64,000 nucleotides of DNA, from the NCBI GenBank assembly GCA_050273025.1, contig CP158635.1, positions 4,774,001 to 4,838,000 of the forward strand. The letters are read 5' to 3'. Within the stretch, counting starts at the first letter, position 1. The number at the start of each line of letters is the position of its first letter. Positions 811 to 55,462 of the stretch are shown here, in pieces. Position numbers and translations under genes: made by a program. The DNA is from Cenococcum geophilum. Lineage: Eukaryota. Under the pieces are notes generated by a model. It was not told the DNA's origin. It saw only the letters and a program-made list of their open reading frames with translations, and made no database searches.

Positions 811-1589
811 CCCTCTAAAAAAGATACTTATCTATAACTCCTAAGTAAGAGAGCACTACGTGCTAAGAGGTAAATTTTGGGACAGCGAGACTTATATTAT
901 AATAGTAATAGTAAGTAAGGAGGATTTATATTTATTATAATAGTTAAGCAGTATTTATATATAGATGGCAACTATAAAAAAAGAGTTGCTAGTGTTAGGA
1001 ATAAGGCAAGTTGCTGTTACGTATAGTAAACTGCCGTCACGTGATGGCAAGTTGCTATCACGTGTCGCCGCGGCACTAGCGTGGCGAGGAGCCTTAAGTT
1101 CCTCGCCCTCCCTTATTCTATTAATAAGCTTTTTAACTAATATTACTGTAACCTACTTAAGTAGTCGTTATTAGTAAGTTACTTTATATAACTAATAATA
1201 ACTAATACCTTATTAAAGCTAGTAAGATTAGCTATAGAATATCTTATTTAAGTAAAGACACTACACGAACTATAGACCTATTCTTTTATAATAGCACCTT
1301 TATTAATTTTGAAATCTTTATCTCTCTATTAAAATAAATATATAATAACACTAGTTATAAATATATAGCTATTACTAAACTTAAAACCCTATAATAACGG
1401 AACCGAGACTTTACTAGCTTCTTTTTGGAATTTTTAGGCCTTATTAGTAAACTAGATTAAAATAAAGCCGCTAGAGTTACTGCTCTCTATTAAGCTATTT
1501 TAGATAAAATTAAAGTATAGTTAGTAGGTAGAGAACTGCTAAAGGACTTACCTAAATTTGCTATAATATATTAATAAATTAATAAGGAC

Positions 1590-1837
1590 TGTTCGTACTA
1601 ACTTAATAGCACGAGTGAGTCGTATCCACGGGCACGAAATACATGTAGTATTGTATGCTTGTTTGGATGGTGACTATCAATTATATAAAGCAGACTACGT
1701 GGTCTATATACTGATGCACCTCCCCCCTAATTAGTTAGTGCTTTATAAGTGCACCAGACGCGTAAGCAAGTGGTTAGTGCACTAAACGCGTAAACGCGTA
1801 AGCACGCGTTTGGTACAACAGGTGCTGTAATTATATA
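1590..1837 (-). repeat. Copia 3' LTR
   Basis: Direct repeat of 7710-7957; the differences I could see are all C/T or G/A transitions. Confidence 0.95.
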
Positions 1838-2349
1838 CTAGCAGTACTTAAAAAATAAAACCACCTGTGTACAGCCTCCGTAATTGCTTTAATAAAACCA
1901 TAGAACATAAAGGAAAATACATAGAAAATCTCCCCTAAGGTGCCGTCTAGGCTGCCTTTTAAACGGTACCTTAAGCTAGCCGTAAGTCCTGCTTACGGTC
2001 CGTAAAATAAACCGTATGGCCTTTTAATAGATAGTAAGTCAGATTTTAAGGGCCGCTAAGGCGCTAGTGCTAAGCGAGCTAATGGCGATTTTCCATGCCC
2101 GGTATGGAAAATCGTAATTAGTTAATTTAACCACTGTGGCAGAATATAGCAGAATTCGGCAGGTCATGTGAGTCCACTAAGTTCTATTATAGCTTTCTAC
2201 CGTTTTTCTACCTAATAGCTTACGGTCCGTAGAATAGGCCGTATAATAAGCCATACGGCCTTCTAACGGGCCGTAGGCGTACTATAGGTACTCCGTTAGT
2301 CCCGTTCTACCCATTTTATAACTTTTAAGTTAAGCTTATTTGTGTTAAT

Positions 2350-5300
2350 TAGGGTTTTAAAGGCTTAACACGGCTTTGCCTTAGTTATAGCGTCCACTAG
2401 GTTATCTCCGCTACTGATCCATTTAACCTCTATAATCTCACGTCGTTTATAGGCCTAATATAAGCATATTAGGTCGACTATAAGCCTCTTCTCTTATATC
2501 GTACCTAGTTTAACTAGGCAGTTATAAAGGGACTTTAAATTAGTGCATAAAACTAGGGGTAACTGCTCTAGTTGTAGAATCTTCTAGACCGTTAATTTAA
2601 TTGCAGCTGCTATATTAAATCCATAAGCTAGTATATATAGTTCAGAAGCTAGTACACTACGGGTTACTCGTTTACACTTAATTAAAGACTAATATAGTAT
2701 ATTTGCGTCCTAATTGCGGTCCGTAAGTACAATTATAAAGCCGATTTATAATAATAGGTCTTTATTATTAGTAAAGGAGGCGTCCGTAAATACTAGTAAG
2801 CTAAGGGAACTTAGGTCTAGTGGTACGAAAGTAAATCCCCTTACTACATTATTAATTTACCACTAAATGCGCTTATTAAGCTGCTTAATATTTTCTTTTT
2901 ACGGATCTATTACCTAGGCCGTAAAGGATAAGTCGTAGGTAGATTTAGATTAGCAAACTGTGGTAATATAGGCGCCTCTTATACGCTATACAGCGTATTA
3001 GTCTTTTATATTTATGGTCTTATAGGTCTCTCCACGGGAACTAGTAAGGTCCGTAGGCTTTACTATAATAAGCTTTAGGTTTTAAGCTTGGCGTTCCTGG
3101 GTTAGCTAGATTAAGTTACCCTTTTATGTAATTAAGCCTCCGTTAAACTTAATTGGAGTCTACTTAGTTAACTACTCTTACAGCTTTGCTAGGAACTTAG
3201 CTTCTTATAGTTTAGTCTCTTTAGCGTCCGCAAATATCCGGTCTACTAAAAAGAGGGTATTGTCTATTTAGAGTCTAATAATACTAAGGCCGTTTAATAG
3301 GCTATATAGGAGGTAGGGGTTATAGGTTAACTGTTCCATTTTAAGTTTACTAACGTAGTACTAGTAGTATATCTTAAACTAATGGTTTCCGGCTTCTGGT
3401 ACTCTATAAAGAGGTTTTACAACCTATAAAATTGTTCCTAGTTATAGGTTAAGCTTATAGGGTAGTCGTATAAAGATATCCCTACTTAGGTAGGTATTAG
3501 ACTGCATATAAGCTTATAAGATATCCCATAAGTAAAGGGCTACGGATTTAGTTTGCTGTAGTCCAGGCGTAAGTACGAGTATAATCCGTTAACTGACCCG
3601 TTAAATTATAGGCGATTGTATAAGGACTAGGTTCTTTCCCTAGTCGTTATAAGCTTATATAATAAGCCTTAATTTCTTAAAGGCTTTATTAGTACTAGGG
3701 TGCTTAATCTTATTAATAAAGCGTAAGTTAAATATACGGACGCCTTATAGAACGTCTCTCTCCGTTATAATTACAAAAACACCCTTTTTAAGTAGTCCGT
3801 TAATCTCTTTACGCCGTAAGTCCGTAAAAGGGGTTTCCTATACTAAAACTAATATATCTATAGGCGGAGATTACTTTGTGGATATGCCTATAGAGGTTAG
3901 ATAGTTCTCTATTACGGGATTCTTATAGGGGCGTCCTTGGCTACGCTTTACGGCAGGTTTAGTAAGTTTAGTAGGTTTCTAGGGGACCTCTAGGGTAGGC
4001 AAGGGTGCCTCCAGTTTATCTAATTCGGCAGTTATTTCTGGTTCGTCTAGTTTGGCGGTTACTTCTAATTCGTCTAGCTTAACGTCATAGGTGTTTTTAG
4101 GCCAAAAGTAGGGTTTTACGGACGTGCTTCTAAAGCTAGTTAGCCCGCTAAGAAGCTATACGCAGCACATCTCGTTTTCTATAGCCAGTAAACGGTAAGG
4201 TCTATTCTAACTGCCGCTTTCACGCTATATAAGGACTTCAGAGTTAAGCGGGAGGTTATATACTAAGGTTGTATTAGGTCCGTTACGGTAGTATAGGGCG
4301 TTATTAATAGTTTATTTAGCCCGTAATTTAACTATTTCGGCTATTGCCTTCTGTATTATAGCTGCTTGTTCTATAATAGATAGGGTAGGGAGGCCTAGGT
4401 TGCTTATCCTTAGGTAGGCTCCATAAACCAAAAGGGTGGGTACTAGTCCGTTAGGGCTAGCGGTATTATTAACGGCTTTTACGGCTATCTGTAAAGCTAG
4501 TTCCTTTTAGATATCCTTATACTCGTCCATAATAATCTAATAAGCTCTCTATAGAGCTGGGTGAGCTCGCTTAATAAGCCCAATAAACTAATACGCTTTA
4601 ACTGGAACAGCTTTTATTAATATAGCCATGGCCGTAGCATACTGCTAAAATTCCTTACTAATAAAGTTCCTACCGGCGTCGTAGGTAATATACTTAGGAG
4701 GTCTAACGTACGTGTCAATCTAGTAGGTCCGTAAAATATCCTAAGTATACTTTATAGATATATTTTGCAACCAACGGGCGGCTTAGTAGCGGGTTGCCTC
4801 ATTAATTATATATAATACTAGGCTGCCGTTAATGTACATAATATCTACGTACACTAAGTGGTTAAAGTTAAGGTCCTTATAAAGGGTAAACTTAAATTAG
4901 CCTAGGGAACGTCCGTATTTCTAGCAAAAGGAGTAGTATTTAGTTAGGTAATTAACTGCCTTCCTGTTAATATTGTTGTGTCCAAAGCGTTTAAGGACTC
5001 TATATAGCTTTTCGGCTAATAGGTAGCTGAAACGGCGGTGCAGACGGTGGATCTCCGTACTGGTAAGGTAGCATAGGTTATAGTTAAAAGATTTCTGAAT
5101 ATAGGTCCGTAAAGTCTCTCCCTATATAAGAAACGGGTGTCCAAATCGTTATGTAATTAATAGGGTAATATACTTACTTCCTAGGGCAGTTACGGGGCCG
5201 ATCAAGGTGTCCGTAATATTATTATAGTAAACCTGTAACTTATTCATGTCCGCAAGGTAAAGTAAGAAAGGGGTGTCTGCTTTTACTATATAGAAGTTAA

Positions 5301-7270
5301 CTAGGCTAATTGGGGTCTTAACTATAACTAATTTAATTAATGCAGTTAAGCTAATGCCGAATTAGACGTTTACGGCCCCAGTTTACATAATATTAATATC
5401 CGTATTATTATTTACGGTAGTCCTATATACGAGGTATTATCCATAGCCTATAGTAGACTTCTTAGAGGCGCCTATGTCAATTATAACACTATAAAATTCC
5501 TTAGGGGTATAGCGTTCTATAATAATATATATAAATAGGTCCTGCTTATAATCTATAACATCTGTAACGGGGGTACTTACGGAATGGTTTTTAGGCGCAA
5601 CTAAGTATATAAAGAAACGGTTGGCTAATACGGTCGTAATATTAAAGGCTTAGCTGTCCGTAAAAGGTCTAAAAGTAGTTAGGAATATCTCTAAGGTCTC
5701 TTATTCCTAAGCGTCTAAGTTAAAGTCAATTATAAGGGCTTCTATTAACTCATCAGGGGGCTCTTTTACTTCCTCTCCTTTATATTCCAAAATAAACTAG
5801 TTAATACGGCTATTAAGTCTCTTCCTAGACTTATTACGTTCTTCCTGGGTATACCTTATAGACTAACATCCTTCCTTACCGCACACGAAGCACTTCTAGC
5901 TGGTTTGTCTATGGGGGTATATTTTTATACGGGGGTTACTACAGGGGTTACAGGTAGGACTTAGTCGGTACGGGTGCTGCTAGCAGTAGCGGCGGTCCGT
6001 AAAGTAGACGTCTAAGTCTATTTACGGATATTAAATATCCATAACAAAGGCTTAAGTGCTGCCTGGTAGGTTTAAGACTTTATACATTGTAATAGAGGAG
6101 CGTAGATTATTAATAAGGCCAGCTAAGGTATCTATAGGCTTATAGTAGGCGTACTTGCAGGGCTCTACTTCCTAGTAGGCCGTAATAAGTTTATTATGCA
6201 GGAAGTTGTCCGTTTAAAGCTTAATATCAAAACCGTACTATAGGTGGCGGAGGTCTTTAATAAGGATTTGCAGGCACTCTATGGTCGATTTTTCAGTATT
6301 CTTGTCCATTACGGTCCGTAGCTTGGTCGCATTCTATTAGGTAAGGATATCACGCTTATATTCTAGTCCTTTAAAGTAGTTACGTGTAGCTTTGTATAGC
6401 TTGTTAAAAGGAACACTAAGGGGGTTACTCTTAAGGTTGGTGTAGTAGTGGTTAAGTGCTAGGCCGCGTAGTATAGTAGAGTAGGCTTAGCTAAACTCTT
6501 ATTTAGGAATATTAGCCTTCTAGCAGAGGTCCGTAAAGATAGTTAGTTTAAAGTTAAAGTTATCGTTTTCGCCGCTATACTTAGATTTATTGGTATAGAG
6601 CTTAGCCAGGTTAGCTAGCTCCTTACTATAGGTCTTTAGTTAGGTGGGTTGCGGATCTATAACTTACGGATTTATAGTTTGCGGATATATAGCTTACGGA
6701 TCTATGACTTAAATAACGGGGGTAATTTGGTCCGTATTTTAGTTTGCGGGGGTATTATGGTCTGTAACTTAAGTACTAGGTGTGCTTTAGCCCGTAAGAT
6801 TAATTCTAAAACTGCTTAGGTTTATAGGACGAATTTAGTTAAGTGGGTTAGGTATAAGGCTAGCGATTATATTAAGTTTGGAAGAAGTAAAGAGTTCCTT
6901 AGTTTCTTAGAACTAGTCTAGGATTTCCTTTTTAGTCTATTCCGTTTAGTTCTTTTCGTGTATTATATTATATAAGGACTATATAACAGTAACTTGTTTA
7001 TTCCTTTTAACCCATATACCTTAGTTACGTAAGAGGGTCTGTAGGTTACGGATAGTAGTAAGGTTGTATACTTTAAAGATAGCTTCCGTAAAGTCTGCGA
7101 AGTCTTCCTAGTATTACTCCTATAGGTTAACGTTTATAAGCTTAAAATATTCATATTTAAGAACTTTTAAATTTAATATAGTTGTTAACGTCAGGTATAG
7201 ACGTAAGGTCGGCTCCCTGCCTCTACTTTTCCTAGCCTTTATTAACTTACTTCCTTAGGTCTGCCATACT
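2350..7270 (-). pseudogene. Copia gag-pol polyprotein (RIP pseudogene)
   Basis: Minus-strand motifs: HRRF(G)H(P)S integrase Zn region near 5020-5050, GL(Q)(T)(D)(D)TLF RT core near 3250-3280, VFTDASF RNase H near 2775-2794. Confidence 0.85.
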
Positions 7271-7709
7271 ATATAGTGTAGTATAGTACGCAGTGGGTGG
7301 AAGAGGTCTTATAGTGGTCCATAAAGGCGGTTAATGTCTATAGCGGTTTGTAGAAGGGTAAGGGTGTCCGTAAGGGGTCTTAACAGGTCTATAGTAGTTT
7401 GTAGAGGGGTAAAGGGTCTTTGTAAGGGGTCTAAAAAGACGTCGGAGGTATTAAAAGAGGGTGTAGTAGGGATAGGGGTTTAAGGTTTAAGGGTAGGGGG
7501 TTCCGTACAGGTCTGTATTTGCGTCTATTATACTTTTAGTAAACCGTACTAAGACTTAAATAAGTATATAGAGTTGGAGATAAGTCCGTAATCCCTAACT
7601 TCCGACCTTCTAGTAGGTTGTACTAGGAGTCTAAACAGGTAGTTGCTGTTAAGTATTGCTTGGGGGGAGGTATCGAGTAATTGCTAATCTATGCGCGCTT
7701 ACTGATTAG

Positions 7710-7957
7710 TGTTCGTACTAACTTAATAGCACAAGTAAGTTGTATCTACGGGCACGAAATATATGTAGTATTATATGCTTATTTAGATGGTGACTGTCGA
7801 TTATATAAAGCAGACTACGTGGTCTATATACTAATGCACCTCCCCCCTAATTAGTTAGTGCTTTATAAGTGCACCAGACGCGTAAGTAAGTGGTTAGTGC
7901 ACTAAACGCGTAAACGCGTAAGCACGCGTTTAGTATAATAGGTGCTGTAATTATATA
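7710..7957 (-). repeat. Copia 5' LTR
   Basis: Direct repeat of 1590-1837. Confidence 0.95.
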
Positions 7958-8195
7958 AGGACCTTTAATATAATAAATAGACTTATTCCCTAAAGCTAAC
8001 TATACCTTATATTTAAAACTCTATAAACCTAGTATATACCCTAAAGCGCAATCCGTCTTTAAAACTAAAAGGCCTTATATATAACCCTATAGACCTTAAT
8101 ACTACTTAATTCTATATACCTTTAAGAACTAATAAATAAAAAATATAAGCCGTAAATAGAGAATGCTTTAAATATAGTAAAAAGGGATATATTTA

Positions 8196-9214
8196 GTAGT
8201 AGTAACTCTTTAATTAACGTCTAATACGGATCCTACTGGCCCACGCAGACTACTCCGTCGCAGGGGGGAAAACTTGTAATTTACATGAAGAAAACCCTGC
8301 AGTTGGGGGAGGAAAAACCCTATAAGCCACCTTAGTAGGATAAAAAACCCCGTTTTGCTATATTTGTCCATAGCGGCGGCCCTACAGGCCTACAACTACG
8401 TCCTAACCTCCTTAAATGTTTAAACTCCTTGGGAACCACTGCTTCCTTCTCTAGCTTATCCCAGCTAGGGTTTACTACATCCCAGCTAGGCCTTGCTAAT
8501 TAATTGCTGTACTATTGTTTCCCATATCTTGGCTATCCCCTATATGCTATCTCTTGTTTAACCATTGCTATATATACTATGCCTCCCCCCCCCTAGGGCC
8601 TATTGAAGGCGTAAGGGGGATTTATCTATTTTAACTACCTAATACTAAAGGCGAGCGGAATATATACGCGTGTACTCTGGGTATCTTTTGTGCCTAGGCC
8701 CTGGTTGCTAGGCCCTCTCTAAGGGTTACCACTCCGTTAAGAGGAGATAAGGAAAACCGTAGGTTGTAATCCGGGCTGCTAGGCAGTAGGTAGTAAAACG
8801 GCGAGTGACCGCATGCTCCGCGGGCGATCGCCCTAGGGGTTAGGAGGGGCCGTATATTTGCTCGTTGCTCGTTTGCAGTTACTCGTTCATTAATATAAGA
8901 GGTTATTAATGCTTTCTGTTGGGGGTCGGGGGATGCTATCAAATGCTATGCATCCATGTTGGATCGTACAGGTGCCTTAATAGGAGGATAGTGTAGTAGC
9001 CGCTATCGTACGGGGTACCAACGGTGGTGGTTTTCGAGATCTCACCATCCTATGTGAAAACTTTTTTTACTACCGCCCATAATACTCGCAACCACCACCA
9101 CTATGTCGTATCGCACGCTGTGCGACGTCTCTGCGTTGGCTCTGGGTCTGAACTTCGAAGACTTAGGTTCGTAGCCGTCACCACGTATAGGTGCAGAGTC
9201 CGTTTTCGACGGCC
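8196..9214 (-). mobile_element. About 1-kb non-autonomous non-LTR (SINE-like) retroelement
   Basis: 14-bp TSD AAGGGATATATTTA at 8182-8195 and 9215-9228, splitting the Gypsy B gag Zn knuckle. Short (TAC)n tail. Its 3' ~100 nt resemble the LINE B 3' end (GGAGTAGTCYGC...GGATCCG..T.A.ACGTTAA). No credible coding capacity. Confidence 0.88.
9129..9214 (-). ncRNA. Degenerate HDV-like ribozyme fold at the 5' end of the SINE-like element
   Basis: P1 GGCCGUC/GACGGCU (G1-U wobble), P2 CUCUGC/GCAGAG, P3 ACC/GGU, 7-nt L3 UAUACGU, P4 remnant, J4/2 GCCAAC (one extra nt). P1.1 is restored only by reversing a RIP-type change. Confidence 0.6.
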
Positions 9215-10489
9215 AAGGGATATATTTAAAGAAATTACTAAACTTACCCTTTTTAAAATAACTAACGTAGTTCCTCTTAGTCCTTAAATTATACTTATTT
9301 TATAAATTATACTTAGTCGCTATAAAGTATTTTACCTTTAATTAATTTAGAAAATAAATTATACTAGGGCTAAGTTGCGCCTTAAGATAAAAAGTAGAAG
9401 AGTATAAGTATCTAAGCTCTTTTAGCGCTAATATATAAGACAACTCCCTTAATATACTTAGTAAAATTTAAATACTTAAAAAATAGAAGAAAGTATAAAC
9501 CTTATAGATAGCGGAGCTACTAATATAGGCTTTATTAATACGAACTATGTAAAAACTTAACGCTTAAATTTAAAGAAATTTAATAAGCCTTAAGACCTAT
9601 AAGGCTTTAATAGTAAGCCTTTAATATATAGTAAACTAATATACTACGCTCTTATAAAGATGTAGATAGGTAAATATCTTAAATATATTTCCCTATTTAT
9701 AATACCCTTAAAGCATTATAAGATAATACTTAAATATAGATAGCTAGAATAACACAACCCTTTAATTAGCTGGGTTAAAGAAATACTAAAATTCCGTATA
9801 ACCTACTGCCGAAATTATTACTTAAAATACTACTTGCCCTACAAATATATATATAACTATTTAAATTTAATATAATATAAATTGCCCTTACTATAAACCT
9901 TAAACCAATATAATAAAGTTATAACTACTAATTGTGGTAAAGAATGTAAAGATAATATATTAAACCCCCTTAAAATTTATATAATATAAGCCGCACCCTT
10001 TTATTTATTAGTAAGAAAATAAGACTATAAGATCTTTATTATAACACTAGAAGATATTAAGAAGGTATTAAAATTAAAGTAATATATTAACCTCTAACCT
10101 CTTATACCTAATAAATAATAATAATTATTTATTGCTTAACGTTTGATTCGGATCCCTATTGGGCCTATGCGGACTACTCCTTATATATATATAGGGAGAA
10201 AACTCTATTTAAGAAAACCCCGTAATCTATCTCCCTACCTTTTAGGACTCGCCTATAAGGCGCCTATAGGGCGCCTACGAGTTACCTATAGTGCTTCTAC
10301 TACCTTACTTTTTAACCTCCTTAGGAACTACTACTGCCGTAACAAGCCTACGGATGCGCTAGTATTGTATACTTTACTCTACTACTATACAGTTATTAGG
10401 GGGCGCCCGTTGCTCGCCCCCCCACCCTCTATTACTATTTCCCTAGCAACCCAGAACTAGTTTAGTATATTTTAGCTAATAAGCCACTA

Positions 10490-13400
10490 GGTAACCGCCT
10501 TAAGGCCTTTTTATATTAAGAGCAGTATATTATAGTTCTCTGTGCCAGCTACTAAGAGTATTACTTCTTAGTTGGTGCGTAAGGGGCATAACAGTATTAC
10601 GTGTTTTGGTGTCTGTCTTGGCCAGCTATATTTGCATCTTAGGCTACCTACTAGGACACCTACCTAGTAGAGCTAGTCTTTTAGTCCTATTATTCCTGTT
10701 CTTAAGAGTGTTGCCATTATATTTTCTACCTTCGTTAGGCCTTCTCGGAGCCCTAAAGTATTTACCCCCTATAGCATTAACTATACTACAGCTTAGGTTT
10801 CTCTTGCCTTAGTCAGCCTCTATACCTTTAACTCCTATACGCCTCTCCAGCGTTGGTCCAACTAGTATTATATTACAGTAGATGGTTTCCTAACGTTCTT
10901 TTATGCTCTACTTTAGCTCCTTTCTCTCTCTTACTATTATCTTTACTGGCCTCTTACGCGTCTCCCTTTCTTCTTTATATAGGCCTAGGCCCTAAAGCAG
11001 CACTATTTTTCTTCTGCTTTTTTTACTTGTTTCTCTAATATGTCTTCCCTACTTTAGGGTTGTTAGTTTATTCTCCTACGGGGCGCCCTAGGGTCCCTCT
11101 ATAGTTTATTTAGGCGTGTCTTAATATACTTTATAACATTAGAGTTGCGTTTATTTTGCGCCCTTTATATTATAGCGGCTTTAATATATAGTTATAGGGG
11201 GGGAATATTGGCTTCCTTCTCGAGCAGTGCTGTGGCCGTTCGCTTATATACGCCTATTATACTCCAAAAGTAGGCTATTTAGACCTTTTAGAGTGGTTTA
11301 AGGAGCGACTTAGGGGGGCCTTTCTTAGATTCTCTAATGGCCCAAATACTGGACCTATACGTTATGGTTAGCCGGACAACTGCTATATATAGTAAGCGTG
11401 ACCTTTAAAAGCATAGACCCTATATAGAATTAACGATCCTAGATAATACAATGTACTATACTTAGCCCTTACGGGCCGCTTACGCCGCATATACGCTCTA
11501 CTAGAGCTTACTGTCTACCTATACTTCTAATACCCTTAGGCCCTAAACTGGTTAACCCCTAAAGCTTTAGATATAAATTATATACTAAAAATCTACAGAT
11601 TGGTTACGTTTTCTTATAAAATAGATTAGCTAGTATTTCTCTAGTAAGAATTAGACTTTATATCGTCTTGCCTATTCTATATAGGTATTATAAGCTTTCT
11701 CTAGTATTCTATAATTCTTTACGGCTGTTAGCCCGTATATAATTAGGGTTATATTATTAATAAAGCCTATTCCCTGGGTTACCCCTTTCTTAAAGAAGTT
11801 AAGTAGGTTGCTTATAAAGAAAAGGAAGAGTATAGGCGAGAGGGGTAATTTTTATGGTATTCCTGTTGCAACTGTAATAGGGGGGCTCTGGTATCCGCTG
11901 AAAACTAATAATATTTCTTTTTAACCTGTAAACCCTTAAATAAATTATATAATCTATTCTGGGAAGCCTTTTACCCTAAGGATATATAGGAGACGCTCGT
12001 AGGGTACGTTATTATAGGCGCCACTAATATCTAGGCTGAGTATTAATACTATAAAGTCCCTTCGCATCGCCTATGCGGATTTAATGGTGGCAGCGAGTAG
12101 CGTAAGTGCTAATAGTGTTAAGCGGTTCTTTCTTACCCCTATTTGGCTCTATAGTAGTAGGGCATGTTCCTTAGCCGTGTCTGCTATATAGTCCGCTATT
12201 ACCTTTTCTAAGATCTTACTTAGGGTGTTTTCTAAGGTAATAGGGCGGTAGCTTCCTGGGATTAAGTAATCTGCTTTACCTTCTTTTTATAGAATAACCG
12301 TCGTTATAGATCTTCTGAGTCGCGGGTAGTAGCCTATAGTAAAGCATGCTCTGGCTATATTTATAAGCTAAGGTGCTATAAATGGTCTATAGGTCTTTAA
12401 GGCCTTATTTAGAATCCTATCTAGTCCTAGTACTATATTATTTAAAAGGCGGCTAATAGTTCTGGCTATTTCCTCTGTTATTATGTCGCTGTTAACCCGC
12501 AGGCGAGTTACTAGTATTTCACCCGTAATGTCACTAAGGTCTGCTAGAGCCGGTTAGGGGAAGAACCTTTTTATAAGGATCTTTGCCTTTTTATCGTTAT
12601 TGTTAGTAGCCTATAATTCCCCTGCTCTTCGTAGGGGTAATAGGTATAGGTCTTCTGCTAGTCGCCCTACCTTTTTCTTTACCTATTTTATTATAGCCCA
12701 CAGGCCCTTATTATAGGGGAGGCTTAAATTAAAAGTGTACTTATTTATAAATCGTCTCTAGTTGTTCCTTACTTTTTTTTTTTAGGGTATTCTTTAACTG
12801 GTTTCTTATGTCTTTATATCGTCTCTTATCTTTAGGGTTGTGGCTACTTAAGTATTTCCTTCTTGCTTGTTATTGGCTAGCTATAAGAACCGCGTATTAT
12901 ACGGACCATATATATCGCACGTAGGGGCCCGGTTTTAAGACTGGGTAGTACTCTTCTAACCCGTTTTTAATCGCTACCTAGATCCTTTCTAGTCTTCGGT
13001 TGATTTCCTTAGGGGTAGCTAATAAGCCTCGCTTGTTTGGTATTGGGTAGATTTCTTCTAGGTTTTAGAGTTGTTGTTTAACTATATTAAGGAAGCTGTC
13101 TGCCTTAAGCATCCTTATTGCGTATCTTTTGCTATTTAGTTGCGCCTTAATGTCTAAATCTAGCTGTATCTAGATAGGGATATAGTCTAAAGTAAGTGCC
13201 TATTCTTCTTCGGGGTTGCACCTTTTAAGTCTCTAGTATAGGCCTTCGTCTATAAATATAAGGTTAATTATACTTCTAGCGGATCCTTATTGCCATATAA
13301 TTGCTCTAGGGGGGGTGGCTAGCTTAAGGCCCCAGGTGTTTATGGCTTTTAGTAGGCACTCTGCCTATTATTTAGCAGCGACGTGGATACCCCCCTACCG

Positions 13401-13830
13401 TAGGTAGTGGAGGTTTATATCTTCTAATAGGATAAACTCTATGCCTTTGGTTTTAAGTAAGCTTATTACCGATATAATATTCTTTATTTGTGGGACCCCT
13501 TTAACCCTAGGGTTATATATATTAATGATTTATACCGGTCCTCTATATGTCTGGATTATTATAACTGTAATATCTGGATTAACTGCCTGCTATAACTATA
13601 AGGATAGGCTAATAGTCTTACTAATTATAAAGCATACGCGTGTAGCTGCTTTTGGTTTGTATAGGAGCTGGAATCCTCAGGGGCAGTATGTTAATTATAT
13701 ATAGGTGTTATAGTACGGCTCTTGTATAGTAAGGATATGGTGTTTCTCTAGGTCTAGGCTGTCTAGTAGGGGCCTTATAAGACGGTGGTTTGTGTTGCTA
13801 TAGTTATACTATATAATGGATAGGTAGCGG
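10490..13830 (-). pseudogene. LINE B ORF2: APE endonuclease, reverse transcriptase, C-terminal CCHC
   Basis: (G)D(M)NLH(H) near 13410, YRPITLENTLSKILEK near 12205-12250, GIP(QG)(S)PLSPILFLFF near 11820-11865, F(VDD) near 11755, QTPKHVILLCP near 10585-10617. Confidence 0.85.
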
Positions 13831-13839
13831 ACCCCCAGT

Positions 13840-15200
13840 GAGGGTCCTTCGCCTCTTTATTATTTCTCGCTTCTTTTATTTTCACTTTCTCTAGGATATT
13901 TAGAACTTTTATCTCTTGTATCTACACCCTGGTTACTACTTATTTTATATAGAGCTTTTTATTCCCATGTTTTATGTTCCTACTAGCGCTTCTATATCTA
14001 AATCTGTTATTGTCTTTAGTTTTTCCCCTGTTCTTACTGGTTGGCTATACGCCCTTTAAGAGTCGGCTGTAAATATTATATTTACCGCGTTAAGTCTAAT
14101 TCTTAATTGTCCTGGTCTTAAGCTTGCTATAGCTGTCTATAAGGGTCTTCCTATAGGGTGTTCTCTTCCTTATGTCCCCTATAATCCTTATGTCCCTATA
14201 CGGTTTAGTAATGTCGCGCGGCGTCGCTTCTGGCCCGTTAAGGCTTAGGATGGCTGGCCTAGCCCCCTAGTATTAAAGGTAGGAAACGATAGAAAGGTAC
14301 CTGCGCTCCCCTGGCTTATCGCCTGTTATTTCCATTTATATAACCTCGCGTGCAGTTATTCCCGTAGCTATTAAGCCCTTACCTTCTATCTCCTGTATTT
14401 AATGTAGTCTTCTCTTTTCTACGCCTTATATGTGCTTTGGTGGCAGTTTACGTATTTTATTTAGTCTTAATTTAAGTAGTGTCTTATATTGTGGGGGCCT
14501 ATATAGTGGCCGCAGCACACCTGTACTGCGTATATAGATTAGGTATATCCCTATTATACGCAGCAATAGTATTATTCTAGACATAGTCTATAGTTATAGA
14601 GCCTTATATTATATATAAGGCCGTTTATAATTATTCCTTTTTAGATAAGGAGTTTTTACATTTTTGGTATATATGTGCTAATAATAAGGGAGCCATACGT
14701 TTGTCCGGCGTCTCCCTAGTAGGTCTTTAGTAACCCTTATATCCTCTTATTATTCTTATTGTTTACTTAGTTTACATTTTCCTATTAAAGCTATTAGATT
14801 TGGGTAATCTTAAGTCCTAGTATAAGGCGTTTCGTTTATCTTACTATCTCTTATATAATTACTGTGTTGTCCGCCTAGCGTCCCTTTTCTACCCTAAGGC
14901 TTATAGGGACCGCTAGGACTTTAACTGGGTAATCCTCGCGGAGTACTTTTATGCTAATACGTTCTCCTAGCCTATTTCCTGCCCTTATGGCTCGTTTCTT
15001 TGCCTATTAGTCCTTTAGGGTAACTCTAATGTCTCCGCTCCTAAGGTGTCGGACCGTAATAGCGTTATAGACCTCTTTGCGGATTTTTATAAGGACTTCT
15101 ATTTCTAATTATCCCCTAAGCCCCTCTGCTTTTTCTGTGTTTGGTTGTATTGTAATTATATACCCGGTTGTTGTTTTAAGGGGGGTAAGTTCTCTATGCT
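13840..15200 (-). pseudogene. LINE B ORF1 (gag-like), degraded
   Basis: Lies upstream of ORF2, with Cys/His knuckle remnants near 14500-14600. Ends approximate. Confidence 0.55.
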
Positions 15201-16981
15201 ATAGAAGCGCAGCTACGGCGGCCTAGGTGCGGTTCGCCGGTAAAGGGGGGTTTTATTTGTTTTTAATTTTGCTTAGCTGTTAGAGGTAGGTAGTTATATA
15301 GTAGAGTTTAACGTGCCTACTTATCTAGGCCTCTACCCTAGTTTTTTAGTATTTATTCTAATACCTAGGCCCAAAGGCCTAGGGGCTTTCTATAAGTAGT
15401 TGGCTGCTACCACCTTAATAGGGGGTCTCACCAGTTCTTTTGGATATCTTATAATAGGATTAGCCTAAGCACTAGTCCGCCCCCCCGCGGTCTATATAAG
15501 AGTCTCCTTCTAAAGTTAGTACGCTTTCGCACGGCTTGGGAGCCTTCTATAGCCTCTAGTTTTACACCTTTTCTATTATTTCCGCTAGTATAGGCATAAG
15601 CTGCCTTTTCTAGGGGTCGCAACTCCCGTCTTATGTGCCTATTGGCGTAATCCTATAAAGATATTATAGCTGCATCCTGTAATATAGAAGCCTTAGGTAC
15701 CTTCTATAGTTAAGGCCTAGACCAAAAAGCCTCCCCTACCTAAGTAACTCCTATTTACTTCTTAAGCATATTTTATTAGCGTACCGCCCTAGAAGCGAAT
15801 AAACGGTTCCGTCTGTTAATATACCGACACGTGTATCCGTTCTCTTAAGCTATATAGTAGTCTTCTCCGGCTAGGACGTAATCCTACCTGCCTATTAAGT
15901 ATACTAGGGGTTAGAGCCTAGCTAAAGGGTAAGGTCCTTAGAGCCAGCAGTAGCTACTACGTACTTCACCCTATAGAAGACTAGCAGTAATATAGGGGCG
16001 CAACACCCTATATACCACTAGCTCCCGTTTTATAATACCTATAAAAGTTTCCTTATAATAGGCCGACCGTGTCTTGTAGAAGGGGTTTATAAATACTAGG
16101 TCCCGCGCCAGGCAACCTGCTCTACCCTCTCCTACTAACTAAGCTTATGTCCCCCCTTTTTATAAGACTGTTAAGTCCTCGTCCAACTAGCCTATATTTC
16201 CCCTATAGCCTCCCCTATATATATATATATTAGGTTACGTGCACTACGCCTATTAAGACCCTTCTATAAGTCGCCTTAGACGTATATATATTAGGTTGCA
16301 TATACTACGCCTATTAAGACCCTCCTATAAGTTACCTGTAAGTCGCCTGTAAGTTACCTACGAGTTAAACGCCATAGGGCCGTCGAAGCTGGCCTATATT
16401 TCCGCTGCCTAGAGCTTTACCCGTATTTCCACCTCATTAAGCCGTTTAGTTGCCGTCGCGTCACTATTACGTCGCTGTCAACCAGGTCGCGCGCACCACG
16501 CCTATTAAGACCCTCTTCTAAGTCACCTAGGTGTACCGGTATACTAGATAGGCCCTTAGAGGGGCCTTAATGAGTTCTTTAGGCAGGGCCTTAATAAGTT
16601 TCGTATAAGGTATCTATAACGCGTTAATTAACAAGTTCTTATAAAAAAGGGTTCCCTACGCCCTTGCCATATCTATTTGGTCTTAGAGCTAGTATAAGCC
16701 TAAGGGTGTCCTATTGTACGCCTAGGACGCGTCCGCATCCGCTAGCTTAATAAGGCTAGTTTCGGCCCTAGCTATAAGCTAAGTAGACGTACATTAGGTG
16801 GTTTTTATATCCTAGTTTCCCTTAATAGGCCTCCCTAGATGGTAGAATAGGAGCTCTAAGCGGAGGCAGTAAGGCTCCTAGTGTTATTAAGGGCGATGCT
16901 TTAAACGCGTCGCCGGCTCAACACCACAGAGTCACAACGACAGCGCGCTGCACGCGCTGCGACGGCTCTCTACTATTACCT

Positions 16982-22246: not shown

Positions 22247-23728
22247 ATGCTAAAGGTAAAGGCTATTAAGCCTAAAATAAAGCCTCCTATAGAGATAAGC
22301 GATGACGAATTCTTATCTACCTCTTCTACTTGTTCTTCTCTATCTTCCCTATGCCTATCTAGGAAAGATAAAGAAGTAGAAGAAGTAGATAAGCCGTCTC
22401 TAGCTTATATAAAGAACCAAAGAAAAAGAAGCCACCCCCTATCGTCTTCTGGAAAAGATAGCTAAAATCTAAAAAGAAACCTACCAAAAATAAGGCCCTC
22501 TAGGGCTAGTTTATACTTTTCCCCTCCTTCTTTAAAACAATTCCTATAAAAGGCCTTAGAAAACCTAACCTAGGCCTATCTAAGGCTAGAAGGAGAAAGT
22601 AAGGAACAAGTTAAATATATTAAGGACGACGTATAAAGAATTATAGTAAGAGAAAATCCTTCTATAAAAGAAACAGAAAAGGAAAAACAGGAGATAGATA
22701 TCCTAAAAGGACTAGTAGAAGAAGTAAGAGCCCTCCGCAAGGAGGTAGCCCCTAAAACCTATATAGAAAAGTTAAAGAAGGGCCTCTCTTCTTCTACTTA
22801 CTCTTCTTTATCGTCGTCTCCTCCTTCCTCTACTACCTCTCCTTCTTCTTCTTTACCCCCTACCTCCTTAATTCCCCCTACTAGTAAGGTAACTAGTAGC
22901 ACTACCAGTTCTACAAGCCCTCCCTCTACTAGAGGGAAAAAGAAGCAGCTATAAGAAAGAGGATTAGTCCTAGTTATAGACTAAAAGGACTAGCCTCTAG
23001 ATATCTTCTCTATACGAAATACAATTAATTAATAATTTATGTCTAAATTGCAAATAGAGAAGCTAGTTATAGCTTCTATAGCTAGAACTAGAGAAAAGTA
23101 GAATATTCTCCTTATAATAACGGAGGAATATAATGCAGATTTTCTAGTTAAATATAAAGAAGTCTGGTCTAGCTGCTTCTCCTTTAAAAGAGAATAAAAA
23201 CTAGAGCCCTAGGCTTAAATAGTAGCTTATAGCGTCCCTATCCCCCCTTTCCTAGAAGAAGGAGGCTCTAAACTTCTACAGGAAGAAATAGAGACCTTTA
23301 ATCCTATTAGGATATAGGGACAACCTAAATAGATCTCTTCTAGGGCAAAAAGATATGATCCACAAACTAGGTTCGGCTCTATAGTGTTTGCTATAAAAAA
23401 TGAGGAAAAAAGATAGGAAATCCTTAAATAGAAGGAAATCCTAATTGTAGGGGTAGCTACTAAGGTAGTTAAATACCTAGAAGTCTCTCCTACTATATAG
23501 TATACAAGCTGCCAAAAATTTAGCTATATAGGAGATAGATACTCTATAAGGGCCTGTTAGTTTTGTGTAGTAGTACACCTATCTAAAGACCACTCCTGTT
23601 CGAGTTGTAATATAATAGGTAAGCCTTATAAATATACTACCCCTCTTTATATTAATTGTAAAGAAAAACACTTTACTACCAGTAAAGACTGCTAGTCTCT
23701 TAAAGCAGCTAAGTTAATATACCAATGA
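22247..23728 (+). pseudogene. LINE A ORF1 (gag-like, CCHC knuckles)
   Basis: ATG at 22247 is in frame with TGA at 23726-23728. (Q)(C)TSCQKF(G)(H) and further knuckles near 23498-23690. Confidence 0.85.
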
Positions 23729-24577: not shown

Positions 24578-25029
24578 TATTACGGACGCTTTAGGTACAA
24601 TGTTACGACTACTTAGAGAAGAGTTAGAAGAAGCTAGTTGGTTAATTTAAGCACGGTTTAGGATAGAGCCGATAGAGCTATGTAATAAGGAATAGTAGCC
24701 GAGGTTATATAATGTGATCTATATAATCTATAATAGAGTAGGTAGAGCATACGTATATTATATATAAGGAGGATTTTATAGGAGTACGGTTATGTATTTA
24801 AGGACCCTTAGTCCCTACCTAGATAGTTCCTTCCTTATAGTAATTCTTAGAATATAATTAGAGTTAATCTATTAGGCAACTACTCTACTAGTTATTATTA
24901 TATTGTTAACTTTAACTTACTTTACCTATATACCTAGCCTATTAACGAGCCCACTATAGTTTTTACTACAAAGTTCCGTTATATAATTACTACCTAGTTA
25001 CAGTAATAAGTATAAAAAGTTAAATAATA

Positions 25030-31960: not shown

Positions 31961-32487
31961 TTATATTAACTAAATTAATTAGACGGATATTATACTCTAG
32001 TAAATAACTTAAAGATATTTAGAATCTTTAAGGATAAAGATAAAAAGGAGGGAGATAGTGTTATGGACGCTTTAAGTATAATATTACAACTACTTAGAGA
32101 AGAGTTAGAAGAAGCTAGTTAGTTAATTTAAGCACGGTTTAGGATAGAGCCGATAGAGCTATATAACGAGGAATGGTAGCTAAGGTTATATAACGTGATC
32201 TATATAATCTATATAATCTATATAATCCGTAATAGAGTAGGTAGAGTACACGTATATTATATATAAGGAGGATTTTATAAGAGTATAGTTGTATATTTAA
32301 GGACCCTTAGTTCCTACTAAGATAGTTCCTTTTTTATAGTAATTCTTAGAATATAATTAGAGTTAATCTATTAGGCAACCACTCCACTAATTATTATTAT
32401 ATTATTGACTTTAACTTGCTTTACCTATATACCTAGCCTATTAATAAGCCCACTATAGTTCTTACTATAAGGTTCTATTACACAAAC

Positions 32488-43299: not shown

Positions 43300-45400
43300 A
43301 AAAGCCTAATTAGTATATAAGAGGATTATCCTATAACTAAAGCTCCCTTTATATCTTAAATTATTATAAGAAGTAAGACGGCATTAGAATAAACAAACTA
43401 ATGTTTATAACTACCGCTTTCGTCTACTAATTGCATAGTTGCAGCGTATATACGTAGTTATCTGCTATAAGGGGGAACTATCAGTAGTAGTTTTTAAGAT
43501 CTCACTATCCCGTATAAAACTTTCACTACTGCTTATAACGTCTTAACGACTACTAGCTCCTACCTATACGCTATGCGACGTCTATATAAAATCCCTAACG
43601 GCAAAGAAAAGTATACCCTGATTATTTTATTTAATCTGCCTCCTGCCTTTTTCTATTAGTGTAAGATATCGAATTAACCTATAATATAATGCTGACTGGA
43701 ATAATTGGCAAACCTAGCTCTACTAGACAAATGTGCTTAATTATAAGGACTAAAACCCTGTTACTATTAAGCTTATTATGCTATAAAATAAAAGGGCTAT
43801 TATTAATATTGGTATATTTTAAAGGCACTTTATTAGCCGGCACTAATAGATATAAGTTAATGGACTACCTACTACTTTATATTTAACGGTTTTAAGAACA
43901 ACAGGGCAAAATATGCTGTTATTCGTTATGCTTTTACTAACTACAATATTTAATTTATTATAGGCCAGAAATTTGACCTTAAAGATAAGTGAAAGGCAGA
44001 CTTTTAGGATATATTAGATATATTATGGATAAAACCTTTATATAACCTACCCGCATTAGAATACCTTAATAGCAGTACTATACCGTTAGATTTTACTATT
44101 AGGTATTAGTAACCGAGCAACCTTAAATCTTCCCCTTGTTGCCCGGCCCTAAGCCTTATTACGTTGCTAAGACTTATTACATTATTAAGTTTTATTATAT
44201 TGCCGCCGAGCCTTATCACGTTACTAAGCCTTATTATATTATTAAGTCTTATTATATTGCTAAGCCTTATTACGTCGCCAAGCCTTATTATATCGTTAAG
44301 TCTTATTACATTACTAAGTTTTATTATATTGCCGTTAAGCCTCATTATATTATTAAGCCCTATTGTATTGCCGCCGAGCCTCCTAGCTAGATTAAGTAAT
44401 TGGACGTCGCGCATTTAACTCCTAGGCGTGGCGGGTTTGATTCCTACTTATCGCGTATTAAAAATATTAAAAATATTAAAAAAGAAGGTCGTTTCCTATT
44501 AAATTAGGCGTTAGTAAGGCTCTAAATTAAGCTTATATTTTTATACGTGTCCCGCAACGCCTAAAGTTATATATTTAACGAAATCTTAGCACTATATACT
44601 AAGCATATCGGCTCTTCCACGTTAAGTTTTAATTATATTGGGCTAGCTCTAAATTATAGCAAGAGGCAGAACGTACTATACTACTACACTATAAGGACTT
44701 TGGAATATAATCTTATAAATTTAACTAAATTATAACCCCTTTCTAAACCTTACGATTAAACCAGATCCTTAGGGAGAGATCCCTATATTAAATCTTAGGG
44801 AACGTTTAGTTGCGACTTTAGATTAAATTTAAAGGCTGTAGAATATATCCGAGCTAAAGCTTAAATCTAATTCTAACGCGATTGTTTAGTTAATCTAGTA
44901 ACTTTCTAATCTAAAAGCTCCTCTAAATCGGCAAGCGCGTTAAATTCATAAGCTATACCGTATATAGAATCTAAATTTATAAATATAGGGTATCTCTGTT
45001 ACTGTAGTGGCTACTATAGTAACGGGGGCGCTATATTTTAGTGAGTAGTTAATTTACTATATCTCTACCACTGCAGTGGCGAGGTACCTTAAGTTTAACA
45101 TTACGCTAAGCATTATAACTTTCCTGTAGTAACTGAGCAACCCTAAACTAAAGTAATTGTAGAACTTACTATGCTACTGCGCTATAAAGGCCCTTAGTTA
45201 TAGTCTTATAAATTTAATTAAAATATAAACACCTTCCTAAATCTAATAATTGAATATTTCTACGTGTAATACTATACCAAGGATTATAATATAGATTGCT
45301 TAGATATGGCTTTACTACAATATAACGGCTCTATGCCAATTAATTGATCTATAAGAGATTTGGGTAGTAAAATTACTGCTAAGAGTTACTGCCCGGATCC
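43300..45400 (+). pseudogene. Unidentified cargo gene with an internal repeat
   Basis: One frame has few stops, mostly RIP-type, across 43861-44400 (WTTY.F.F.GFKNNRAKYAVIRYAF...). No family recognised. Confidence 0.35.
44151..44380 (+). repeat. 18/21-bp frame-preserving minisatellite, about 12 units
   Basis: Unit AAGCCTTATTACGTTGCT with variants; probable ancestral unit GAGCCTCATCACGTCGCC. Confidence 0.9.
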
Positions 45401-53013: not shown

Positions 53014-53098
53014 GCCCGCGAAGCCCTACTGCACGCGTCCACGTCGCCGCGGGTGGAAACATCATCAGGAATCAATTCCTTTTGATGGCCAAGTGCAG
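53014..53098 (+). ncRNA. HDV-like self-cleaving ribozyme, intact fold
   Basis: P1 53014-20/53048-54, P2 53029-34/53093-98, P3 53035-37/53045-47, L3 UCCACGU, P1.1 CC/GG (53055-56), P4 53060-87, J4/2 GCCAA. Confidence 0.9.
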
Positions 53099-54865
53099 AG
53101 GCGATGGTAGAGAGCCGCCGCAGCGCGTGCAGCGCGCTGTCGTCGCGGTTCTGTGGTGTTGAGCTCGCGACGCGTACGATGTATCGTACAAAGCTTCGCA
53201 CAAAGCATCGCCCTCAACAACACCAGGAGCCTTACTGCCTCCGCTTGAGGCTCCTGCTCTACCACCTAGGGAGGCCTATCAAGGGAAACTGGGATACGAA
53301 AACCACCCGATGTACGACTACCTGGCTCGTAGCCAGGCCCGAAACTGGCCTTATTAGCCAGTCGACGTGGACGCGTCCTAGGCGTACGACAGGACACCCT
53401 TGGGCTTGCACTAGCTCTGAGACCGTAGGGACACGGCGAGGGCGTAGGGAACCTCTTTTTATAAGAACTTGTTAAGGTTAACGCGTCGCAGATACCTCGT
53501 ACGAAACTTGTTAAGGCCCCAAGGCCACCGCGAAGAACTTGTTAAGGCCCCTGCCTAGAGAACTCGTTAAGGCCCCTCTACGAGGGCCTATCTGGTATCC
53601 GGTACTCCCAGGTGACTCAAAAGAGGGTCTTAATAGGCGTGGTGCGCGCGACCTGGACGCGACAGCGACGCGATAGCGACGCGACGGCGACCAGACGGCT
53701 CGACGAGGTGGAAACACGGGCAAAGCTCTAGGCAGCGGAAACACAGGCCAGCTTCGACGGCCCCATGGCGACCAGGTGACTCACAGGAGGGTCTTAATAG
53801 GCGTGGTGCACGCAACCTGCGCATATACATATGGGGGAGGCTCTAAGGAAACACAGGCCAGTCGTACGAGGTCTCAACAGTTAGAGACACAGGCCAGCTT
53901 ATAAAAAGGGGGGACACAAGCTTGGTTAGTAGGAGAGGGCAGAGCAGGTCGCCTGGCGCGGGACCGAGCATCTACGACCCCTCCTGCAAGACACGGTCGG
54001 CCTGTCATAAGGAGACTCTTACAGGCAACGCGAAACGGAGACTAGTAGTATATAGGGTGTTGCGCCCCTATACTACTACTAGCCCCCGCGGGGCGTAGTG
54101 CGTAGTAGCCACTGCTGGCTCTAGGGACCTCACCCCTTAGCTGGGCTCTAACCCCTAGTGCACCTGGTAGGCAGGCAGGATCACGTCCTGGCCGGAGAGA
54201 CTACTACATGGCTCGAGAGAACGGATGCGCGTGTCGGTGTACCAATAGACAGGACTGCTCGCTAGGGCAGTACGCTAGTGAGGTACGCTTAAGGAGCAAA
54301 CAGGAGTTACTCAGGCGGGAGAGGTTTGGCAGGCCTTAACTGTAGAAGGTGCACCCACTCCACACTGCAGGATGCAGCCACGACGCCCTTGTAGGATTAC
54401 GCCAGTAGGCGCGTGAGACGGGAGTTGCGACCCCTGCAAATGGCAGCTTATGCCCGTGCCGGCGGAAACAATGAAGAGAGGCGTGAAACTAGAGGCTATG
54501 GAAGGCTCCTAAGCCGTGCGAAAGCGTACCAACTCTAGGAGGAAACTCTTATACAGACTGCTAGGGGGCAGACTGGTACTTGGGCTAACCCCATTATAAG
54601 ATATCCGTAAGAACTAGTGAGAATCCCTGTGCGATTGGTGGTGGCAGCTAACTGCTTGTGGCTGGGATAAAGCACTGGAAAACTGAGGTAGAGGCCTGGA
54701 TAAGCAGGCATAGTAAACTCTACTGTATTATTAGTACTACTAGTATATATAACTACCTGCCCCTTTGCTCCTCCGTCCGTCGTCGCAAGGGCGCCGCCGG
54801 TTGTATACCCCCTAAAGACACGTCACCACGACGCTAGCCACCACAACCAACGATTCCACCACAAC

Positions 54866-55462
54866 CGGTCTGCCACAGAGCAGACGACCTCCACTACAAC
54901 CAGTCTGCCGCAGGGCAGACGACCTCCTCTACAACCCGTCTGCCGCAGGGCAGACGACCTCCACTACAACCCGTCTGCCGCAGGGCAGACGACCTCCACT
55001 ACAACCAGTCTGCCGCAGGGCAGACGACCTCCACTACAACCAGTCTGCCGCAGGGCAGACGACCTCCTCTACAACCAGTCTGCCGCAGGGCAGACGACCT
55101 CCTCTACAACCCGTCTGCCGCAGGGCAGACGACCTCCACTACAACCCGTCTGCTGCAGGGCAGACGACCTCCACTACAACCCGTCTGCTGCATGGCAGAC
55201 GACCTCCACTACAACCCGTCTGCTGCAGGGCAGACGACCTCCTCTACAACCCGTCTGCTGCAGGGCAGACGACCTCCTCTACAACCCGTCTGCTGCAGGG
55301 CAGACGACCTCCTCTACAACCCGTCTGCTGCAGGGCAGACGACCTCCTCTACAACCCGTCTGCCGCAGGGCAGACGACCTCCTCTACAACCAGTCTGCTG
55401 CAGGGCAGACGACCTCCTCTATAACCAGTCTGCTGCAGAGCAGACGACCTCTACTGCAACCG
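54866..55462 (+). repeat. 35-bp minisatellite, about 17 copies, each with a stem-loop
   Basis: Unit GTCTGCC-GCAG-GGCAGAC-GACCTCCWCTACAACCM. CAGRGCAGAC recurs every 35 bp from 54876 to 55436. Confidence 0.95.

Follow-up and report, generated by a model that had tools for sequence, protein, structure and literature searches.

A high-copy, non-coding retroposon family with a predicted hepatitis delta virus-like ribozyme at its first base and a LINE-like 3' end

What kind of mobile element is a 1-kb repeat that codes for nothing, opens at its very first base with what looks like a self-cleaving ribozyme and closes like a much larger retrotransposon? The question is raised by EL2, a 1019-bp repeat on the minus strand (8196..9214) of a 64-kb stretch of DNA (assembly GCA_050273025.1, contig CP158635.1, positions 4,774,001 to 4,838,000; hereafter the window, whose own numbering is used for all positions). 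A preliminary description, made from the letters of the window, had classed EL2 as a short interspersed nuclear element (SINE) headed by a ribozyme of the hepatitis delta virus (HDV) type and tailed like LINE B, a long interspersed nuclear element (LINE) nearby. By following up this proposal with relatives of the element, we found that a ribozyme-headed retroposon with a LINE-type tail is, in our view with high confidence, the best explanation of EL2. The window copy itself is very probably a dead member, lightly altered by repeat-induced point mutation (RIP), of a high-copy family of non-coding retroposons of about 1 kb.

The boundaries of EL2 are precise. From its 5' end at 9214, where it opens with GGCCGTCG, it runs to a 3' end at 8196, where it closes with GAGTTAC(TAC)n, and it is flanked by exact 14-bp target-site duplications (TSDs; plus strand AAGGGATATATTTA) at 9215..9228 beside the 5' end and at 8182..8195 beside the 3' end. 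Contigs of one sequencing run, X1, join position 8184 to 9218 without EL2, with 11 letters in common, and 12 loose contig ends at 8195 of the same run continue into the sequence after 9218. These joints are paralogous empty sites; the target of the EL2 insertion was thus another repeat, the other copies of which are empty, and the earlier account of a TSD-bounded, non-coding element of 1 kb is borne out. Compared with the majority consensus of 56 full-length relatives, the window copy is 86.6% identical; its G>A changes number 32 and its C>T changes 30, and TpG/CpA is the context of 32 of the 62. Decay in EL2 and its relatives is dominated by transitions, with many changes in this same context; together with the labels of the sequencing runs that contain EL2 (soil, root and 'fungus' metagenomes), this suggests that the host of the family is probably a RIP-active fungus. 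The window as a whole is AT-rich (mostly 25-40% GC), packed with decayed repeats and contains only five open reading frames (ORFs) of at least 120 amino acids.

The first base of EL2 opens a nested double pseudoknot whose paired (P), loop (L) and joining (J) segments follow the order P1-J1/2-P2-P3-L3-P3'-P1'-P1.1'-P4-J4/2-P2'. This HDV-like head covers nucleotides (nt) 1-86 of the element (9129..9214, minus strand, as are all parts of the head), as judged from the fold, the alignment to Rfam, our own covariance model R1 and 104 distinct heads of the family, and cleavage is predicted just 5' of the G at 9214. P1 joins GGCCGUC (nt 1-7, 9208..9214) to GACGGCU (nt 36-42, 9173..9179) and P2 joins CUCUGC (nt 17-22, 9193..9198) to GCAGAG (nt 81-86, 9129..9134), both pairings being found in the window copy and in the family, while P3 joins ACC to GGU (nt 23-25 with 33-35, 9180..9192) around the 7-nt L3 UAUACGU, for which the family consensus is UGUACGU. 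These three helices, the 7-nt L3 ending in ACGU and the GCCAA joiner are all present as first described, and the first P1 pair, at the predicted cleavage site, is a G.U wobble. A43 and C44 (9171..9172) form the 3' strand of P1.1. P4 is a stem-loop of nt 49-56 with 66-73 (9142..9166), a perfect 8-bp helix in the consensus with two A-C mismatches in the window copy, and J4/2 reads AGCCAAC (9135..9141; at least 90% conserved in the 104 heads), in which CCAA contains the presumed catalytic C and an additional C precedes P2. P1.1 of the window copy is reduced to U28-A43, A27 being unpaired. This A27 is preceded by T and reads as a RIP-type TpG-to-TpA change, and A51 and A52 of P4 are G in the consensus. 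With one pair of P1.1 and two of P4 lost to these G-to-A changes, the ribozyme of the window copy is probably impaired. As a separate observation, nt 3-15 of the head (9200-9212), CCG-UCGAAAA-CGG, are able to form a small hairpin that ties up part of the P1 5' strand and whose loop differs between subfamilies (A or U at nt 12); this hairpin may be an alternative, inactive conformer of the head.

To what extent is this head a property of the family? Relatives come from one metagenome scan; its pattern lay downstream of the ribozyme, which avoids selecting for the head, and all family counts given here are among the matches listed. These comprise at least 122 loci, with 104 distinct heads and 56 full-length elements, and supplied the consensus for which the preliminary description had wanted copies collected. 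A complete head starts at the same G, straight after unrelated flank, in 117 of the 122 listed loci; the remaining five include three cut by contig ends, one without G1 and one chimera. Among the 118 complete heads (117 listed loci plus the window copy), 58 have a recognisable 3' motif, and in 46 of these 58 exact TSDs of 9-16 bp (mostly 13-15) abut G1 and bound an element of 983-1047 bp. Sixty listed loci have at least 1100 nt downstream of the head, of which 54 are colinear 1-kb elements and six diverge from the 1-kb body. One of these six (L024) is interrupted by another repeat, and the other five, in which we sought a LINE behind the same head, have no match to anything in the window. The window contains further copies of the repeat that interrupts L024, at 398-808, 24580-24985 and 32060-32482. 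No ORF of at least 70 amino acids is found in L041, and other copies have only short ones.

The family is also widespread in sequencing data. Words sampled from EL2 are present in runs of two coded organisms, in several soil and root metagenomes and in RNA libraries labelled 'fungus metagenome'. In four runs searched at 80% likeness, 4605, 3243, 7457 and 1026 contig pieces align on EL2, mostly with transition differences, and contig depth drops at both ends of the element. For the RNA library, depth is 28,876 at 9176-9213 versus 65.5 at 9214-9251 at the 5' end, and 1552.6 at 8188-8225 versus 0 at 8150-8187 at the 3' end. All four runs consist of contigs, which indicate presence rather than RNA ends or expression level, and neither stretches of EL2 without contig cover nor depth differences between bins were counted as evidence.

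Conservation sets the head apart from the rest of the element. In the 56 full-length copies, the core of the head (nt 1-48 and 74-86) has a transversion and indel rate of 0.0076 per site versus 0.057 in the body, a roughly 7-fold difference that points to selection on the head. When all 104 heads are compared, 96.0% of 2631 pair cells hold standard pairs, as opposed to 30-42% with the partners slid by 1-3 columns, and 44 cells show double changes, mostly in P4, versus 16.6 +/- 3.0 in shuffles, where 0 of 500 reach 44. The first P1 pair (G1.U42) is a wobble in 97 heads and A-U in the other 7 of the 104. P4 occurs in at least five lengths or sequences, all of them paired (CUGGGUCU/AGACCCAG, which is the consensus, CUGAGU/ACUCAG, CUGAG/CUCAG, CUGGAU/AUCCAG and CUGC/GCAG), and its shorter, different versions are still paired in relatives of the L020, L028, L093 and L047 type. 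P4 of HDV-like ribozymes is dispensable, and a varying length with kept pairing is its expected behaviour.

P1.1 is usually CC/GG in HDV-like ribozymes. In the EL2 family it consists of G27-C44 and U28-A43, from L3 positions 2-3 with the two nucleotides after P1. All 104 distinct heads have U28-A43; the G27-C44 position holds GC in 68, AU in 3 and GU in 2, and the other 31 are unpaired and, like the window copy, mostly have A at nt 27. The family P1.1 is thus a regular two-pair helix of a different sequence from the usual one. On this point the preliminary description was half right: its non-canonical GU/AC form stands, but the 'GC/GC after de-RIP' form that it offered alongside is excluded because U28 and A43 occur in every one of the distinct heads. 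P1.1 and P4, without which the proposal was to be given up, are both formed by the family consensus.

Could such a fold be a chance resemblance in a repeat? Topology alone is weak evidence, because a loose descriptor with a free start matches 25 start sites in the AT-rich window (both strands), and minimum free energy folding of the head, by a program blind to pseudoknots, is no better than that of shuffles (z=0.63). When the start is fixed at the first base of the head, however, only 302 of 300,000 shuffles form the P1/P2/P3 topology, and 8 of 300,000 also have P1.1 and a C.RA joiner. A stricter descriptor that includes the L3 motif has matches confined to the EL2 family and one other family of elements, across the window and the 122 listed loci (both strands). 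Given in addition the core conservation described above and the covarying helices of that independent second family, we regard chance as close to refuted, with almost no probability left to it.

The second family is represented in the window by the first ribozyme-headed element to be described there, about 1.7 kb long and located in an unmutated, GC-rich block (53014-54757, plus strand), and by a RIP-decayed copy with the same head architecture (17066-15284, minus strand). The head at 53014 is canonical: P1 is GCCCGCG/CGCGGGU, P2 CUGCAC/GUGCAG, P3 GCG/CGC and P1.1 CC/GG, with the L3 UCCACGU and the GCCAA joiner that it has in common with EL2. Between this element and the EL2 family, 10 of the 18 core pairs are changed on both sides, 8 are identical, and none is changed on one side only or broken. 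Covariance model R1, which was built from EL2-family heads alone, without the 53014 head, gives 119.4 bits on the EL2 head and ranks the other family next in the window, at 53014-53111 (19.9 bits, E=0.0056) and 17066-16969 (18.4 bits, E=0.012), both aligned end to end. The proposal that HDV-type structure is kept without sequence identity is supported by both results. Apart from these, R1 gives a weak match at 22552-22635 (plus strand; 12.6 bits, E=0.29), where the opening GGCCUUA is followed 22 nt downstream by its perfect complement UAAGGCU; this may represent a decayed third head or a chance match.

These comparisons also bear on a different view of the head, namely that it serves chiefly as an internal promoter or a 5' control module setting the transcription start at G1, with an HDV-like fold that is non-catalytic or incidental. 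A precise common 5' end and strong conservation of the head are expected of a promoter as well, and the roles need not exclude each other, since a 77-nt trypanosome sequence is promoter and ribozyme at once according to PMC3383444. What a promoter does not predict is that 10 of 18 pairs should change on both sides between two head families with none broken, that P4 pairing should be kept through changes in length, or that a G.U at the first position should go together with a CCAA joiner. We therefore consider a promoter-only head improbable.

If the head is a ribozyme, is the element still a SINE? EL2 is short, non-coding, abundant and TSD-bounded and has a LINE-type tail, all of which would suit a true RNA polymerase III (Pol III) SINE with a head descended from some small RNA that has gone unrecognised. 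However, ARAGORN found no transfer RNA (tRNA) in six elements and the window copy, and no Rfam family appeared at E<=1 in three whole elements, in agreement with the initial remark that no tRNA or 5S head is evident. Moreover, no A/B-box pair was found in the first 500 nt of eight little-mutated copies, so no Pol III head came to light in the family, all eight have T4-T7 runs near nt 150, 450 and 860-900, and a length of about 1 kb also speaks against this class. A Pol III SINE is thus very improbable, and the label 'SINE' in the preliminary description is a misnomer for an element with no Pol III head and with such runs inside it. The EL2 family does have one SINE trait, a 3' end in common with a partner LINE, plus TSDs, but its non-coding body, 5' HDV-like head and LINE 3' end are traits of elements of the SIDE and NARTc type. 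For EL2, going by its sequence, the best description is that of a non-autonomous, SIDE/NARTc-like retroposon.

Which LINE provides the 3' end? LINE B (10119..15283, minus strand, 5' limit uncertain) is a RIP-decayed retrotransposon without long terminal repeats (LTRs), identified as such by its 3' end and by a reverse transcriptase domain (Pfam RVT_1, E=2.5e-14 in read-through translation), and its copies within the listed metagenome loci are 84-90% identical. The last ~70 nt of LINE B (GGAGTAGTCYGC...GGATCCG.AT.A.ACGTTAAGCAATAAAT(TAT)n) match the EL2-family 3' end. By ordinary blastn, less-decayed family members align to window positions 10109-10187 at 80-88% identity over 49-77 nt with E-values down to 1.8e-22, the best being L050 (87.8% over 74 nt, E=1.8e-22), followed by L078, L036, L041 and L003 (80-82% over 49-77 nt). 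A second block matching LINE B is located ~150 nt farther upstream, and some family members carry the LINE's GCAATAAAT tail variant. In the window copy, the LINE B-like region spans 8196..8470 (minus strand) and comprises conserved blocks, a stem-loop region near its end (GGAGUAGUCUGCG...GGAUCCGUAUYAGACGUUAA) and, at 8196-8204, a (TAC)n tail. The stem-loop predicted in the shared 3' end shows no covariation either way, all 11 pairs being invariant or changed on one side. A transition-lenient Smith-Waterman comparison with LINE B scored 149-204 versus a shuffle maximum of 126; these scores are inflated, so we trusted the conserved blocks alone and repeated the comparison with ordinary blastn. 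BLAST on purine/pyrimidine-collapsed sequences was very noisy, with invalid E-values, and only its two top matches were used. LINE B is the presumed source of the borrowed EL2 3' end. As an observation on its own, the LINE B copies at L051 and L037 are split by EL2-family insertions, that is, by the parasite within its presumed helper.

The tail of the second family is another matter. Three independent copies of the 53014 element, including one in the L014 flank, end at ...TATATAACTACCT and then continue into differing sequence. This tail is unlike that of LINE B, and the partner of the 53014 element is therefore probably a different LINE. We would go further only tentatively, with slightly less than even confidence, and propose that this lineage carries a class of abundant retroposons, with at least two families in the window, each setting its 5' end by an HDV-like head of its own in place of a Pol III promoter and having the tail of a different LINE.

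Several results weigh against the interpretation of EL2 as a ribozyme-headed element with a LINE B tail. The covariation within the family is modest: pairs with any double change number 6 versus 4.0 +/- 1.2 in shuffles (48 of 500 reach this value, which is not significant), and all double changes are transitions, which RIP also makes. The comparison of two head families amounts to effectively one evolutionary contrast, albeit a clean one, and J4/2 of EL2 is one nucleotide longer than in the 53014 head, with an extra C after GCCAA, as had been cautioned at the outset. Nothing in the window matches Rfam at the gathering score. In a search of the full library, where RF02682 and CPEB3_ribozyme (RF00622) were the HDV-type families to show up, the best alignment of the EL2 head was to HDV-F-prausnitzii (RF02682), end to end over exactly 9214-9129, but its score of 15.1 bits falls short of the threshold, 44 (E=1.3 with 211 nt searched), and three whole, little-mutated family copies gave no match to any Rfam family at E<=1. 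EL2-type heads are missed by current Rfam models. At the other end of the element, the claimed resemblance to LINE B holds for the less-decayed relatives, but the window copy itself matches only in the purine/pyrimidine-collapsed form (90% over 62 nt), with no match at E<=0.01 by ordinary blastn. Furthermore, no EL2-type head is seen at the 5' end of the LINE B copy in the window, and the first 349 nt of LINE B are covered by none of the 122 listed loci; this LINE B copy may be 5'-truncated. Finally, a fixed transcription start could equally produce the precise common 5' end, and the depth step in the RNA library is weak evidence, as contigs are uninformative on RNA ends and the library possibly contains DNA.

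Taking these points into account, the ribozyme-headed retroposon suggests the following life cycle, after the mechanism known for R2 SIDEs and L1Tc/NARTc. Transcripts of an EL2 copy would arise by read-through from whichever promoter lies upstream or would start at a putative internal promoter for RNA polymerase II. The first 86 nt of the transcript would adopt the HDV-like fold, a nested double pseudoknot, and cleave the RNA just 5' of G1, stripping all upstream sequence and leaving the same 5' end on every RNA. A stringent reverse transcriptase/endonuclease of the LINE B type would then recognise, in trans, the last 70-270 nt, in common with LINE B, plus (TAC)n; target-primed reverse transcription as far as the 5' terminus would yield a new copy starting at G1 with a 9-16-bp TSD. 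What the sequences show is the anatomy, the family, a common 5' end exactly at the predicted cleavage site, the TSDs, a conserved fold and the 3' end in common with LINE B; catalysis, the transcribing polymerase and any mobilisation by LINE B we infer. The head may also double as a promoter, by analogy with the Pr77 sequence of trypanosomatids.

EL2 contains a second ultra-conserved block, at 8796..8871 (minus strand), which is a run of short adjacent palindromes (CCCTAGGG, CGATCG, CCGCGG and GCATGC). With a transversion and indel rate of 0.002 versus 0.057 for the body, it has the lowest substitution rate of EL2 and the highest contig depth in all four runs, and in the window and the listed loci it is found only inside family copies. 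It may be a promoter, a protein-binding site or a second functional RNA or DNA module. Elsewhere in the window, a heavily decayed fragment at 43442-43588 (minus strand) aligns only to consensus nt 80-216 (score 135 versus a shuffle maximum of 51), with the ribozyme core absent or replaced upstream. A RIP-decayed Copia-type LTR retrotransposon occupies 1579-7957 (minus strand), with LTRs at 1579-1837 and 7699-7957 that are 92% alike and zinc-knuckle, integrase and RNase H motifs in its read-through translation. One block alone in the window, at 53-56 kb, is GC-rich (52-58%) and unmutated, and it includes 18 registers of a 35-bp tandem repeat at 54715-55605 (plus strand).

If the interpretation is correct, ribozyme-processed non-LTR retroposition extends from animals and trypanosomatids to a probable fungus, in elements that are very abundant and present in soil, root and fungal metatranscriptome data. 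The family provides more than 100 natural variants of the HDV-like fold, in which P1.1 is non-standard and P4 varies freely and which annotation by covariance models overlooks, and it would offer repeat annotators a class for 'SINE-like' repeats of fungi that lack a Pol III head. Genomic 5' ends that coincide with the predicted cleavage site are, in addition, a simple handle on ribozyme use in vivo. In the open-access literature we found no report of HDV-like ribozymes in fungal retroposons, and the related work on fungal elements that we found covers only tRNA and 5S SINEs and the non-autonomous elements of Blumeria. That a head with the GU/AC variant of P1.1 marks the first such system described in fungi is a suggestion that we make with some reserve, judging it a little less probable than its opposite.

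How, then, does EL2 compare with known systems? The eel pair UnaL2/UnaSINE1 is a stringent LINE/SINE pair with a common 3' stem-loop and a short-repeat tail, in which the SINE has a tRNA-derived Pol III head. EL2 similarly has a conserved 3' end in common with its LINE, a predicted stem-loop and a short tandem-repeat tail, which together imply recognition of the 3' end in trans, but its head is an HDV-like ribozyme fold, unlike the tRNA-derived head of UnaSINE1-type SINEs. The ribozyme closest to EL2 in Rfam, that of Faecalibacterium prausnitzii (RF02682), shares the J1/2 start UCGAA.A and has a nearly identical P3-L3-P3-P1 core (CACCU.UACGUGGUGA), whereas P1, P2 and P4 differ; this resemblance is probably convergent and structural.

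Closer parallels are found among retrotransposons with ribozymes. PMC6765202 reviews the R2, L1Tc, Baggins and RTE ribozymes and SIDEs, and describes hammerhead or HDV-like ribozymes as used by some metazoan LINEs and SINEs. SIDEs are defined in PMC3414825 (Eickbush & Eickbush 2012), which includes R2/R1 hybrids with the ribozyme of one element and the tail of another. According to the same paper, the R2 SIDEs and R2/R1 hybrids of Drosophila are, like EL2, non-coding, non-autonomous and not of the Pol III type, they combine a 5' HDV-like ribozyme with the 3' end of a stringent non-LTR element and retain the ribozyme while its sequence diverges, and hybrid SIDEs have 14-bp TSDs, as does the window copy of EL2. 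The differences are that SIDEs, as described there, lie within ribosomal DNA, are co-transcribed with 28S ribosomal RNA and are few, whereas the EL2 family is dispersed, ~1 kb long and very abundant (at least 122 loci and thousands of contig pieces), ends in (TAC)n and has a host that is probably fungal.

The trypanosomatid elements that carry Pr77 form the second parallel. In PMC3185411, PMC3383444, PMC4035085 and PMC8190864, L1Tc and NARTc have a common 5' HDV-like ribozyme of ~77 nt that sets the RNA's 5' end. In these sources, L1Tc/NARTc and the other elements with Pr77 (SINE-like, SIDER and DIRE) form, as with EL2, a system of a dispersed LINE and abundant non-autonomous relatives. The host kingdom is a different one, the likeness is one of architecture, and the promoter function of Pr77 is one demonstrated in the trypanosomatid elements. 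NARTc ends in poly(A), unlike the EL2 family with its (TAC)n or (TAT)n. What remains of the originally proposed class of ribozyme-headed SINEs is thus a class of ribozyme-headed non-autonomous retroposons, which are not SINEs and are not new in kind, because R2 SIDEs and L1Tc/NARTc are accurate analogues; their design is known from flies and trypanosomes and is probably new for fungi.

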